NCBI RefSeq assembly: GCF_003019035.1
Contig: NZ_CP027448.1
Direction: 5' to 3' (one strand)
Source: Escherichia coli
GTDB taxonomy: Bacteria > Pseudomonadota > Gammaproteobacteria > Enterobacterales > Enterobacteriaceae
Length of the DNA: 64,000 bases
Shown one piece after another: positions 18,001-33,000 of the stretch. The position numbers are program-made. Each line of letters begins with the position of its first letter. The stretch's first letter is position 1.

Positions 18001-21000
18001 ATGTGATAACATTTTATCATTAGACTCTGGATTGATTAATTCAAGGAAAACCAATAATATATTACCTTATTTATTTAGACGTCTTGATAAATTATTAACC
18101 AATATAAAATATCATCTTCCACATAATTTCTTTATTACTGTGAATATTAATCCTGAAGATATTATCACCTGTGATCTTGAAAGGGAATGTTTGCATTTTA
18201 TCAAAGTTTTTGGGAATGACAGAATAAGGCTTACCCTGCAATTATCAACTAAAGATGATCTTTGCATAATACAAAAAAAACAGTCTTCTTTAAACCGGCT
18301 CAGGAATAACAATATATATTTATCTCTTAATGATTTCGGTATTGGCTATGCAGAACTATCACACTTGCAAAACATACCTTTATCATATATAAGTTTGCAT
18401 AAAACAATATTCCATAATATAGAGGATAGTAGGTTAACAGATATAATAGCAACTACTATTATTGATTTATCAAAACAATTGAATATAGATGTTATTGCTG
18501 ATGGTATAGAAACAAAAAATCAGGCTGAATACATGATTGGAAAAGGAATTAAATATTTAAAAGGTCCTGTATTATCCTCTCCACTATCAGAGGATGAATT
18601 TTTACGTAAGTTGTTAGAGTCATTTAATAAAGTCTAACAATCAGAACTATCTTCTACAAGGAGGAGTGATTAGTTCAAGCATAGAACATCTGTGGTCCAG
18701 AATAGAAAAACGCCGTATACTGTTCTAAGAGAATATTTAGGATTCTGTGTAAATGCCTTTTCTCAGATGTGACCGTCCAAGTGGTCACCATACTTGATAA
18801 TAAAACGGCTCATTTCCATACGGCAGTCCTTCAACGGCATCATCCATTTCTGGGATGCCGACTGGATTGCCTGCCACACCACTTTGTTCACCGAGTCGTC
18901 TGTCCGGAAGACTTTATACTTTTTTGAACGCATGGGGATCGCTGTTTAGAGACTCGATGGAATTCGTCGTAGATAGCACTTTGCAGATGGCTGGATTTTC
19001 CCCTATATTTCCAGACACCTGTTATCACTTAACCCATTACTGGCCCGCTGCCGTAGATATTCCCGTGGCGAACGATAACCCAGTGCACTATGCGGATCCA
19101 TTCGTTATCATGCTCGAACACTTCTGCAAGGTTCTTTGCTGCCGTGAACCCGTCTGGTTTGAGCATGACACTGATGTAGTCACGCTTTATCGTTTTCACT
19201 AAGCTCTTTGCTATGCCGTTACTCTCCGGACTCCACACCGCCGTGTTCTTCGGTTCAAGTCCCAACATCCGGGCAAACTGTCGTGTTTCATTATCCCGGT
19301 GGCATGAACCATTATCCGTCACTCTACTGGAGACGCCGGAAGCTCGTTGCCGAAGCGGCGTTCCACCGCTCCCAGCATGACGTCCTGTACTGTTTCACTG
19401 ACGAAGCCGCCCGTAGTGACCGCCCAGTGCAGTGCCTCACAGTCACAGCAGTAGTCCAGCGCGAACGTGACTTGCAGTTTTCTCCGTTATCACAATGGAA
19501 CTCGAACCCGTCAGAGCACCATCGTTGATTGCTTTCTTTCACGGCCACTTTGCCTGTATGTGCCCGTTTCGATGGCGGTACAGCGGTTTTTCACTCAAGC
19601 AACAGCGCATTCTGGCGCATGATCCGGTAAACACGTTTAGCATTGATCGCAAGCATACCATCAAGTTCGGCCTGTCTGCGAAGCAGCGCCTATACCCGAC
19701 GATAACTATACGTGAGCAGTTCTCCGATAACATGGTGTATATGGAGAAGCACATCCGTATCATCTGAGTGACGGCTGCGGCGACCATCTTTCCAGTCATC
19801 GGTTCGTCTGAGAATGACGTGCAACTGCGCACGCGACACTCGGAGACAACGGCTGACTAAGTTTACTCCCCATCCCCGGGCAATAAGGGCGCGTGTGCTA
19901 TCCACTTTTTTGCACGTCCATATTCAACGGCTTCTTTAAGGAGTTAATTTTCCATCGTTTTTGCCGAGCAGTCGCTGGAGTTCTTTAATCTGCTTCATGG
20001 CAGCAGCAAGTTCAGAGGTAGGAACGACCTGTTCTCCTGCGGCCACAGCAGTAAGACTTCCCTCCTGGTATTGCTTGCGCCAGAGAAATAACTGGCTGGC
20101 TGCCACACCGTGTTGCCAGGCAACAAGGGAGACCGTCATTCCCGGTTCAAAGCTCTGCTGAACAATAGCGCTCTTTTCCTGTGTAGTACGCCGTCTGCGT
20201 TTCTCCGGTCCTAAGACATCAATCATCTGTTCTCCAATGACTAGTCTAAAAACTAATATTAAGACTATCACTTATTTAAGTCATATTAGTTTTCTGGAGA
20301 TTCAGGCGGCCAGTCTAATGGTCATCGTATAGCTCAGAACGTGGCAAAATTTAGCCAGTTAGACTGCCAGATTCAGCTTATTTAGTATAGCTACTGTCCC
20401 AGACCGTAGAAAATGGTCAACAAAAACTGGCCACCGAGTTAGAGTTTTCCACTATCGATTTTCCGATTCGTTTGGGGGTAACCCACCGCCGGCATCCATT
20501 CGTTCTTCAGACTCCTGAAGAAGCGTTCCACTGGGCTGTTATCCCTGCAGTTTCCGCGCCGGTTCATACTCTGCCTGATCTGGTTTTGCCCTGACGCTCA
20601 TCACACAGTTTTTTACCCATCTTGTCACTGTGGAAAGGCCAACATCCATAGCTTTGGCGGCATCTGCCACCATGTAATTCTGGTCAACAACCAGTTGAGC
20701 GGATTCGCGTTTAAACTCTGCGCTGAAATTTCTTTTTTTCATTGGAGCAACTGTCTTGTTCTGAGGTGAGTATATCACTTCTGTTCAGGTGCCAAATTCA
20801 GTGTGCCACTTCAACTCTCCAGATCAATGCGATCAGTAAAAAAGTTTAGTACTGACTACCTTAGAAAAAGCGTCCATTACATCACTACACATCAGAAATT
20901 AATCCTGAAACCAATACTACCCATTACCGGCGATTCAATATTACTTCCTTTCTGATAGATGGCTTCTGCCCACACCCCCGTGTTCGGCGTCAGTTGAGTG

Positions 21001-30000: not shown

Positions 30001-33000
30001 GCCTTTTTCATCCTTACTTCTGTGATTATCTGGCTGAATCCTGTACCTTCACTATGCAGTTTTCTTTTAAGCTGGCTAGCACTTATACATAAGACTGAAG
30101 CAACATCAGACAGATACCACTTCTTTGCTGGAGCTGCGGCAACAATGGCTTCAACGCGCAGTGAATAGTTATTCAGTCCATATGACAACACAGGTAGTAA
30201 CTGTTTTTGTTCATTAAGATAATCCAGCAATACAAATAATGCAGACTCATAAAGGTTAACATTTTTCTTTTGCTCCACAAGTGGCATCAGCGAGTTCAGA
30301 AAAGTACCATAAGTTTCCTTTCTAAAAAAATAATTTTTCCTGTCATGTATGCATAGAACATCAGCATCCCTGAGCCTAATATACAGATAGTCACTGATTA
30401 TATTACATGGTATATCAATAAACATAACACACCGCTCATCACCCATAATAAAATGCTGAACATCATTTCTTTTAATAAGTAGCACTTCATTCTTATTAAA
30501 ATCAATATATTCATTGTTAAACAAAATACAAAATGATCTTAATGTAATAGCAAAACAATATGGAAACATATAGTACAGGTGTTATTTATAAACATTCGTC
30601 GTTTTTAATATAGTTCAAATACTATTTTTATCACTATATTAAAAGGATTTAATCATTAGTAAAGTAACATAGCAAATATTCCAGTATACTTACATATAAG
30701 TACCATCACTTACCTTCATCCAGGATATTGTAAGCACACTATATTCATCTCCTTTTAGTACAATATTGATTCGTAATACATTCCTTCTTTCATGCGATAC
30801 GGCCATTTTTTGAGTATTTTCACTTGATTTTCTGATATGTTAATTTAAGTAAGATGCAGTACTTCAACTAAAAAATTTTATCAATCTTATCCAGCTTTTA
30901 TTGTTCCCATCAATGACTTAATTTTTAAATGGTAACAGATGAATGTTAAGATAACATTAAGATCCTATTAATAATATGGATATCTCCTTCCTATTGTGTT
31001 TTTGATCCTTACGAACAACAGTTCTCTATGTTTCAACCTTGGCATTAAGAATATCTGAGCACCATTTTATCATTTTATCTACAGTTCCACTAAATAAAGC
31101 AAGACGTACATACTGCATGTCATCCATACTACGCTGTTATACCTGCAGACATCTTTCATATTGCGCATTATTTTCGTGTACGAGGTGTTTTATGATGTTG
31201 CTGAGACCATTGCAACAGCAGAAACTCATGGACAGAGCGATTGCTACAACATTAAAAATGTGTTTCATATTCTTACTCATAAATCAGGCCTAACGAATCA
31301 TACTGATAATAAACATTATATAATTTTTTTGATAAAATTTTCATATATTAACAAAATCGGATAGTGTTATACCCCTTTCTGACACTGATATTTTCCCATA
31401 ATTTTCTTGTGTATTTTATATTCATCAACTGATATAAGCAATATGACCACTATTTCCCTCAGGGAAAACAAAGGCATAACGAAACTCTTGTCAGTGCATT
31501 AAGCAACTGTCTTGAACGTAAACGATTCGTCCCATTCTCCGTTATTTCTGAGCATCAGCATCGCGTTCAGGATTGTCAGCAGTTTACGCATACAGGCAAC
31601 CAGCGCCTTTACCAGCATTAAGCAGACGCTGGTAAAAGGTTTTTATCACTGGGGTAAAGCGGGCAGCTACAAGAGCCGCCATGTACAGTGCTGTCCTTAC
31701 TCCAGCTCTGCCGCCAAAAATAGTTCGTCGGCCTCGCATAGTACCCGAGTAGCGGTTTATGGGAGCAACGCCCACAAGTGAACTGATTTCCCGCCGCTAG
31801 AGGCTGCCAAGCTCTGGAACCTCAGCCAACAATGCAGCAATAGCCATAGTTCCAATGCCTTTCGTGCTGTTCAGGCGTTCAGAGGTAAGCGTCAACGGAG
31901 CGCCGTATTGACACTTATTTATCGGTGAGAACTATTTTCCATGCTAGCAGTTCGTCAACACGGTTGGAAGGCCATTCAGGCAGTACGCTCAGGATATGGC
32001 GCAGATACACTTCTGGATCGATACCGTTCAACCCACAGCTCCCGATTAATCCGTACAGCAGAGTTTCCCGACAGCGAATTCTGAGCATGCTATTGCGAAC
32101 AGACAAACATTATGCAGGAAAGCACTGGACAGGAAAACATCGAACCTGTCACCGGAAATAGGCCAGTCAGTGAATACCTGGTGAAATCGCCTCACCAGAG
32201 AAAAAATGGCGGTTTTGCTGACACCAGTCTGCGCAGAAATGCGCGGGTACGACAGTGACTCGTCAAATCTCAGCTGTAGCACACGCAGGATCAATTCCGG
32301 ATTATCTGCCAGTACCGTAAGCGCCCCATCTGCGACGTCTTGTGAAAATTGTCCTGTCTGGCAACAATCGCGCCCATCTATATAGATGGACACGAACGAT
32401 GAATTCCCAGACAAAAAAAGATATTCCCTGCTTCCGTTCTTATTTGCCTGATGCTCTGCGTTTAAGATTTGAAGATAAACTGACCATCCGGGCCATCGCT
32501 CAGCGTCCAGGTCTCAGTCATTCCACAATACATACGCTTTTTCAGCGATTTATTGCATTCGGTATCGCATGGCCATTGCCCGATTCAGTTTCATTAGCTC
32601 AGCTTGACGCCATCCTTTATGCCAACAGAAAGAAGGAATTAACAGAGCCTCAAATCAGCGAAGGCACATGGAGAAAAGAACGGCGAGCCAGCTACAGCCG
32701 TGAATTTAAGGTCCGTCTGACTAAGCAGGCATTACAGCCCGGTGCTGTTGTTGCCCGGATCGCCAGAGAGCACGGTATCAATGATAACCTGCTGTTTAAA
32801 TGGAAAAGCCAGTACGAGGACGGCTTACTGAGCGAGGATGACATACAGGAATGCATGCCTGTCCCGGTGGCTCTGACTGATACGCCAGAGCCGACCAGAC
32901 CAGTTACAAATCCCTTCTGGCGTAACAAGCCTGATGAGTTCCCTGAGTGTGATCCCGGAAACGTCCCACGGTGCGAGCTGTATCTTAAATCAGGTGTGGT

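Follow-up and report, generated by a model that had tools for sequence, protein, structure and literature searches.

Two short insertion sequence (IS) derivatives, here called pieces A and B, lie in an IS-rich accessory region of an IncFII plasmid from cattle E. coli, which also carries katG, an espP-like S6 peptidase gene and an AIDA-like adhesin gene. Their small size raises the question of whether they are miniature mobile elements, comparable to MITEs, or remnants of larger elements. The 64,000-nucleotide stretch of contig NZ_CP027448.1 that we analyzed is referred to below as the window, and the features discussed are collected in the table. We conclude that pieces A and B are very probably non-functional IS fossils that mark past deletions and are not miniature mobile elements. 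The direct evidence for both consists of their block structure, their junctions, the missing termini, the lack of target duplications and a distribution confined to a single locus.

Features of pieces A and B and of the adjoining elements, in coordinates of the window.
Feature	Position	Strand	Evidence
Degenerate IS2-like element	18992..20317	-	93% to annotated IS2, frameshifts
Internal IS1414-like (IS256 family) transposase-gene fragment	20318..20413	-	Alignment
Piece A, internally deleted IS911	20409/20411-20813	-	BLAST, alignment to full-length IS911
Truncated IS911 right inverted repeat (IRR), ~31/36 bp	20414..20444	-	Alignment
Deletion junction 2	20478..20488	-	Alignment
Remnant orfA	20539..20742	-	Alignment; PF01527, E = 7e-7
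Deletion junction 1	20583..20590	-	Alignment
IS911 left inverted repeat (IRL)	20779..20813	-	Alignment to full-length IS911
IS110-family transposase C-terminal fragment (Transposase_20)	31491..31884	-	Domain match; abuts IS66-family IRR
Piece B	31885-32316	-	BLAST/alignment
IS66-family right end: tnpC C-terminal coding region and IRR	31885..32061	-	Alignment, DDE_Tnp_IS66_C
Internal ISEc45 (IS110 family) transposase-gene fragment, 94 bp	32055..32148	-	98.9% identity
tnpA fragment (nt 17-185) of a different IS66-family element	32149..32316	-	98% to L009 type
Neighbouring full-length IS66-family element, 2,699 bp	32317..35015	+	Alignment

IS911 belongs to the IS3 group of the IS3 family; it is 1,250 bp long, has terminal inverted repeats with 5'-TG...CA-3' tips, carries orfA and orfB connected by a -1 frameshift, and generates a 3-bp target-site duplication (TSD). 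As the reference we used a full-length copy (L013, positions 302-1551) flanked by the TSD GCT/GCT, which replaced a composite of two copies that proved to be only partial (L005 and L006). The inverted repeat length (36 bp) and the OrfAB organization follow PMC2909936. Aligned by BLAST to full-length IS911, piece A resolves into three collinear blocks (E-values from 1e-31 to 1e-105) that retain IS911 positions 1-231, 983-1078 and 1170-1245, with 95.3% identity across the 405 positions that remain. The similarity of both pieces to IS elements is real, lying far above chance by BLAST and alignment. The earlier note proposed that piece A arose from IS911 by internal deletion and kept only a truncated orfA; this is borne out, and the span of the piece is refined from 426 bp to 403-405 bp.

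While piece A resembles IS911 in its sequence identity, its IRL tip, the N-terminal helix-turn-helix (HTH) region of orfA and the inner part of the IRR, it has lost 842 bp in two blocks, in addition to three single nucleotides. At junction 1, IS911 positions 232-982 (751 bp) are missing, with 2 bp of exact microhomology (AC) inside an imperfect 6/8 match. This loss takes the 3' end of orfA, the frameshift site and most of orfB including the catalytic domain, leaving neither the programmed -1 frameshift organization nor a DDE transposase. At junction 2, positions 1079-1169 (91 bp) are missing between copies of an 11-bp direct repeat, TGGTGGGTTAC, and in sister plasmids the loss at this junction is larger by 14 bp (20477-20490). 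What remains of orfA conserves the first 44 amino acids (HTH_Tnp_1), after which a 1-nt deletion shifts the frame; the resulting open reading frame, 67 amino acids in all, crosses junction 1.

The ends of piece A are unequal, so that its reported retention of terminal sequences is only half correct. The IRL is present with an intact tip, TGAAGTGG, though it has lost one nucleotide at IS911 position 23 within the conserved GGCCACC block. The IRR ends in ...GTTGACCA and lacks its outermost 5 bp, CTTCA-3', which include the CA-3' cleavage site. A search of the flanks for a 3-bp TSD found none, the flanking trinucleotides being GTA and ACT. The truncated IRR is abutted by an IS1414-like fragment that resumes at 18740-18991, beyond an IS2-like insertion; when the IS2-like element was excised in silico, the joined flank was colinear with IS1414 at 85%. 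The IS2-like element is bounded by a near-perfect 5-bp target duplication (ATGGC/ATGGT). Homology to IS1414 and other IS256-family elements begins at 20409-20413, within the expected IRR tip. We therefore rejected the alternative that the tip had merely been mutated, as the IS2-excised flank alignments place foreign IS256-family homology inside it. In the domain searches, which were run on hand-picked peptides, the IS1414-like peptide had no match to any protein family.

Piece B had been described as an internally deleted IS66 in which the 5' part of tnpA is fused to the 3' part of tnpC. Our alignments show this description to be wrong: three different elements contributed to piece B, which has only one terminal repeat. 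Two types of IS66-family element are relevant here: ISEc43/ISEc23-like elements with a short TnpA (e.g. L017, NZ_LR778147.1), and an element with a long TnpA (L009), which is 2,704 bp long with an 8-bp TSD. The right end of piece B comprises 177 bp with an intact IRR, GTAAGCGTCAACGGAGCGCC, a GTAAGCG terminus typical of the family and the DDE_Tnp_IS66_C domain; its identity is 94% with the L017-type element and 87% with ISEc43, but only about 63% with the right end of L009. Conversely, the tnpA fragment matches the L009 type, so that the tnpA and tnpC portions come from two lineages, and the 94 bp of ISEc45 stand between them. Missing from the tnpA fragment are the start codon and what precedes it, namely the 5' UTR and the IRL. 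Since the L009-type element is delimited by its TSD (TTTCTTTT), the fragment, which begins at element position 102, starts 101 bp inside the element. Overall, the IRL, tnpB and 90% of tnpC are absent from piece B, and of its supposed terminal sequences only those of the right end survive. Domain matches confirmed the identity of the fragments from the IS66 right end, orfA and the IS110 family, while for tnpA the only matches were to HTH domains, weak and below threshold.

The middle fragment has a known counterpart. In NZ_CP095083.1 (L007) and NZ_CM166344.1 (L008), ISEc45 is inserted in the 3' part of tnpC of an IS66-family element, and in piece B the segments 32055-32148 and then 31885-32061 are colinear with this arrangement and in the same orientation. 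Unlike these two records, piece B keeps only 94 internal bp of ISEc45, both ends of ISEc45 being deleted along with 532 bp across the junction, which in the comparison with L007 falls at a 3-bp microhomology (TGT).

The motif GTAAGCG at 32317, which might be taken for a left end of piece B, is the IRL of the neighbouring full-length element; it points rightward, opposite to piece B, pairs with CGCTTAC at 35009-35015 and cuts off the tnpA fragment. We considered whether this neighbour had inserted into the tnpA fragment and rejected this, as its far side is an asrC fragment with no remainder of tnpA, and the flanks differ. A search of its flanks for an 8-bp target duplication (CCAGTACC versus GGTAAACC) found none. 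Both full-length IS66-like copies in the window belong to IS66 lineages other than that of the piece B IRR, and both have a frameshifted tnpC, in the neighbour through a 2-bp insertion at 34835-34836. Sequencing errors might account for these frameshifts; NZ_CP062205.1 lacks the 2-bp insertion. No complete IS911 is present in the window. Besides piece A, IS911 is represented there only by its positions 1-931, located at 5442-6373, and by an IRR stub of 58 bp at 10864-10921.

These observations bear directly on the proposal that pieces A and B are MITE-like, non-autonomous elements with both ends, mobilized in trans by full-length copies in the window. Piece A is short, lacks a transposase gene and arose from an IS by internal deletion, as do MITEs and mini-IS elements, and its IRL tip is intact, with about 31 of the 36 bp of the IRR remaining. 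In addition, other, independent internally deleted IS911-like pieces occur on E. albertii and Raoultella plasmids, suggesting that such derivatives arise repeatedly. However, the IRR tip of piece A, including CA-3', has been replaced by IS1414-like sequence, and a TSD is lacking. The distribution of piece A also differs from that of a MITE. It occurs as a single copy in 6 of 5,426 E. coli genomes, always with identical flanks and thus at one syntenic locus, and in PLSDB it is confined to a few sister plasmids of the same lineage; a 24-mer spanning junction 1 had no match in 100,044 species genomes. A 505-bp compact match in pig plasmids (H114-H119) was considered as a second copy and rejected on account of its different junctions; it represents an IRR-GAG-IRL arrangement of abutted ends. 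Piece B was found in 7 records, all of one lineage, and, being a chimera of three elements with one terminal repeat, would not be mobilizable as a unit. Of the full-length partners that the earlier note invoked, IS911 is absent from the window and both IS66-like copies carry the tnpC frameshift; a source of transposase may exist on the host chromosome. Mobilization of MITE-like units is thus already largely refuted, and we regard it as extremely unlikely. On the evidence of the missing ends, transposition of either piece would not be expected.

IS-rich regions are prone to misassembly, and collapsed IS repeats might have produced the apparent deletions as artefacts of assembly or sequencing. 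Against this, the junctions recur in at least 6 independently sequenced complete plasmids from different countries, with flanks that are 97-100% identical, leaving a negligible probability for this explanation. The earlier suggestion that junctions of past recombination or deletion are preserved in both pieces is supported; we count three deletion or illegitimate-recombination junctions in piece A and three in piece B.

A further possibility is that piece A acts as a one-sided substrate for chromosomal IS911 OrfAB, through its IRL together with the truncated IRR or through the IRL alone, causing deletions or rearrangements of adjacent plasmid DNA while not itself being transposed. During figure-eight formation, ends of IS3-family elements with defective tips, such as the IRL of IS2, can take the role of the target end. 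Piece A has a good IRL with its tip intact and retains the inner, transposase-binding region of its IRR, so that synapsis with chromosomally supplied OrfAB is conceivable from its sequence. The host chromosome lies outside the window, and a source of IS911 transposase may therefore exist. The continued decay of junction 2 in sister plasmids and the lack of target duplications in the surrounding region would also be consistent with IS-mediated rearrangement. However, the IRL has lost a nucleotide from its conserved block, there is no sign that the local rearrangements start at the IRL, the 14-bp loss is internal and slippage-like, and the source of transposase is hypothetical. Overall, we consider such one-sided activity very unlikely. 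Much the same low probability applies to a broader reading in which piece A keeps some activity: its intact IRL and the inner half of its IRR might still be bound and paired by IS911 OrfAB from elsewhere in the cell, which would make it a hotspot for IRL-anchored deletions or rearrangements beside the AIDA-like adhesin operon, or else its 67-amino acid HTH-only OrfA stump might titrate IS911 ends. Separately, and as improbably, piece B might be the relic of ISEc45 inserting at a fixed site in the tnpC of IS66-family elements, which, if true, would mean that one IS specifically targets another.

Returning to the preferred reading of both pieces as fossils, a stepwise history can be proposed for each, though the order of events is inferred and not provable. 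Piece A would have started as an IS911-like copy that lost 751 bp at the 2-bp microhomology and 91 bp by slippage or recombination between the direct repeats. An illegitimate join to the interior of an IS1414-like element, which may later have been split by the IS2-like insertion, probably cost it the final 5 bp of the right end. Piece B may have begun with the insertion of an IS66-family element into an IS110-family element, followed by the insertion of ISEc45 into the 3' part of tnpC. Two more deletions would then have left the right end and the 94 bp of ISEc45, and this stump would have been joined to the tnpA piece of a second IS66-family element, the whole now being bounded by a third, full-length IS66-like element.

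As immobile scars of repeated deletions, pieces A and B are an ordinary finding. Nested and truncated IS fragments are standard on large virulence plasmids of E. coli and Shigella. In sister plasmids, the PGAP annotation already records all of the fragments described here as partial or frameshifted transposase pseudogenes. The two pieces matter biologically only as markers of past rearrangement, and the practical use of the result lies in annotation: the IS911 piece should be annotated as a doubly deleted, one-ended remnant and the "IS66" piece as a three-element chimera, and neither should be tallied as a mobile or MITE-like unit. Their junction sequences can serve as lineage markers for this cattle-associated plasmid family.

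Both insertion sequence (IS) pieces are IS fossils, the structure, junctions, missing ends and distribution of which could be observed directly. The first, on the minus strand from 20813 to 20411, is an IS911 copy with internal deletions and a truncated orfA, as the earlier note had proposed, though its size is 403-405 bp rather than ~430 bp. Self-BLAST and BLAST against IS911 resolved it into three colinear IS911 blocks. Using as reference initially a composite and later a genuine 1,250-bp IS911 copy (L013 302-1551, flanked by a 3-bp duplication, GCT), a gap-tolerant global alignment gave 95.3% identity over 405 aligned positions, with five deletions: 1 nt each at 23, 201 and 1210, 751 bp (232-982) and 91 bp (1079-1169). 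At the 751-bp deletion, ...GGGCAAAAC runs straight into CAGATCAG..., with 2 bp of exact microhomology inside an imperfect 6/8 match. The 91-bp loss, flanked by two copies of TGGTGGGTTAC, is a classic direct-repeat deletion. The first 44 codons of orfA are retained (HTH_Tnp_1, E = 7e-7) and the frame is shifted thereafter; the frameshift window and almost all of orfB are missing.

In the IS3 family, the terminal CA-3' is the end that is cleaved and transferred. The IRL of the IS911 piece, TGAAGTGGCACACTGAATTTGG-CACCTGAACAG, has an intact tip and lacks one C in the GGCCACC block common to IRL and IRR. At the right end, the IS911 match stops after ...GTTGACCA, and the next bases are TTTTCTACGG where IS911 has CTTCA. 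A mutated IRR tip could be ruled out as the source of this difference, as foreign homology begins inside the tip: once the IS2-like element inserted within an IS1414-like fragment is excised, 18740-18991 and 20318-20413 are colinear with the 3' third of IS1414 (85%; about 75% to another IS256-family element), and this homology begins at 20409-20413. The right end is therefore ~5 bp short, cut off where an illegitimate join attaches it to the inside of an IS1414-like element. The 3-bp flanks are GTA and ACT, and there is therefore no target-site duplication at this piece. For comparison, IS911 has 36-bp inverted repeats that are bound by OrfAB (PMC2909936), and IS3-family ends carry 5'-TG...CA-3' (e.g. 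PMC4433286). In the region of the IS2-like insertion, four IS families are packed in 2 kb beside an adhesin operon.

Coordinates and closest matches of IS parts, and plasmid cargo, in the window
Feature	Position	Strand	Description
IS2-like element, degenerate	18992-20317		93% to annotated IS2; frameshifts and internal stop; flanked by ATGGC/ATGGT duplication
Chimera, part 1	32317-32149	minus	98% to nt 17-185 of tnpA of the IS66-family element L009
Chimera, part 2	32148-32055	minus	98.9% to internal ISEc45 (IS110 family) transposase gene, L007 3501-3594
Chimera, part 3	32061-31885	minus	IS66-family tnpC 3' end and IRR; DDE_Tnp_IS66_C domain
Plasmid cargo			katG; espP-like S6 peptidase gene; AIDA-like autotransporter and its heptosyltransferase; F4-like fimbrial genes; F-type tra region

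The second piece had been described as one deleted IS66, with the 5' end of tnpA fused to the 3' end of tnpC. BLAST against E. coli genomes instead divides it, from 32317 to 31885 on the minus strand, into three parts, with 94 bp of ISEc45 between the IS66-family fragments. The L009 reference element, which has a long TnpA, spans L009 3100-5803 between copies of an 8-bp target-site duplication (TSD), TTTCTTTT, so the tnpA fragment begins 101 bp inside an element of this type. Part 3 is 94% identical to L017 (NZ_LR778147.1) and 87% to ISEc43 in L007 (NZ_CP095083.1). Since the TnpA of the L017-type element is short and unrelated, and the right-end fragment of the piece shares no more than about 63% identity with its L009-type counterpart, the two IS66 parts come from different elements. 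Parts 2 and 3 line up colinearly with the IS66::ISEc45 configuration in L007 and L008 (NZ_CM166344.1), 532 bp being missing at a TGT microhomology; the junction sequence has no microhomology where parts 1 and 2 join. The GTAAGCG at 32317 was rejected as a second terminus: it reads rightward, pairs with CGCTTAC at 35009-35015 and is thus the IRL of the adjoining 2,699-bp IS66-family element. As it belongs to this neighbour, the piece has one terminus only. Past its IRR lies a C-terminal fragment of an IS110-family transposase (Transposase_20, E = 2e-17).

Unrelated E. coli chromosomes carry ISEc45 at one shared position in the 3' portion of IS66-family tnpC (L007 2700-4085; L008 269-3273, where two ISEc45 lie in tandem and ~180 bp of the tnpC tail is repeated), and 32055-32148 is the 94-bp remnant of an insertion of this kind. 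One IS may target the other site-specifically, or a composite IS66::ISEc45 may have spread.

The earlier note further suggested that both pieces act like MITEs mobilised in trans by full-length copies. The nearest known entities are IS911, two IS66-family lineages and ISEc45, from which both derive by sequence, and the kind of feature they represent is already known. Neither has the two termini, target duplication and transposase of a functional element, nor what defines a MITE, namely ends that are intact, TSDs and several copies at dispersed sites, and the mobile reading is thus not supported. With its flanks, the IS911 piece occurs in 6 of 5,426 complete E. coli genomes, always in identical context; full-coverage PLSDB matches are of the same plasmid lineage, and a 24-mer over its first deletion junction had no match among 100,044 species (one genome each). 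The window holds no full-length IS911, only positions 1-931 (5442-6373) and the last 58 bp (10864-10921). There is a small possibility, judging from the repeats retained, that OrfAB from a chromosomal IS911 still binds the intact IRL and inner IRR half, promoting local rearrangement. The retained IRR of the chimera is of another lineage than both full-length IS66-like copies in the window (32317-35015 and 44135-46832), neither of which has an 8-bp target duplication (flanks of the former, CCAGTACC vs GGTAAACC). A 2-bp GT insertion at 34835-34836, absent from the intact copy in NZ_CP062205.1, truncates TnpC of the former; the latter, 95.5% to L009, has tnpC split in two frames near codon 115. 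The frameshifts either reflect genuine inactivation or arose as errors in sequencing.

The junctions found do bear out the proposal that the pieces mark historic recombination or deletion events. We infer that IS inserted into IS successively, followed by deletions at microhomology or direct repeats and by illegitimate joins, and that both pieces are now inactive. In sister plasmids another 14 bp is gone at junction 2 of the IS911 piece (20477-20490, placed by base-by-base alignment for NZ_JBSQHB010000003.1 only), which is ~14 bp shorter in NZ_JBSQHB010000003.1, NZ_JBSQHC010000001.1, CP055749.1 and CP057965.1. This loss indicates that decay is ongoing, and is a useful sub-lineage marker.

Other IS911 derivatives were also encountered. 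PLSDB matches H210-H215 (E. albertii and Raoultella terrigena plasmids) are internally deleted IS911-like pieces spanning 350-520 bp, in which orfA-5' is joined to orfB-3' regions; as their breakpoints differ, such deletions evidently arise repeatedly and independently. A compact pig-plasmid match was rejected as a further copy of our piece, having an unrelated IRR-GAG-IRL structure: at L012 2720-2830, in NZ_CP062900.1 and five sister plasmids from pigs, the right and left ends of IS911 abut across a 3-bp spacer (...GACCACTTCA GAG TGAAGTGGCAC...), as they do at the junction of an IS911 circle or tandem dimer, here fixed in a plasmid. Within the window, the 58-bp IS911 end, its TGAAGTGG tip intact, directly meets a truncated IS66-family element (10921-11769) at the latter's GTAAGCG terminus, one more junction between nested IS, with 88.7% similarity to the chimera's right-end fragment.

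The E. coli plasmid to which the window belongs is large, of the IncFII type and from a cattle or farm source. Positions 16000-39400 are colinear, at 99.5-99.8% identity, with NZ_CP062205.1, NZ_CP043829.1, NZ_JBSQHB010000003.1 and a few more, in which the PGAP annotation under both pieces consists throughout of transposase pseudogenes, either partial or frameshifted. The AIDA-like autotransporter and its O-heptosyltransferase (20892-25609) sit between the two clusters of IS remains, cargo that may form an IS-bounded islet; the autotransporter has 1,176 aa here and varies in repeat number and frameshifts among sister plasmids.
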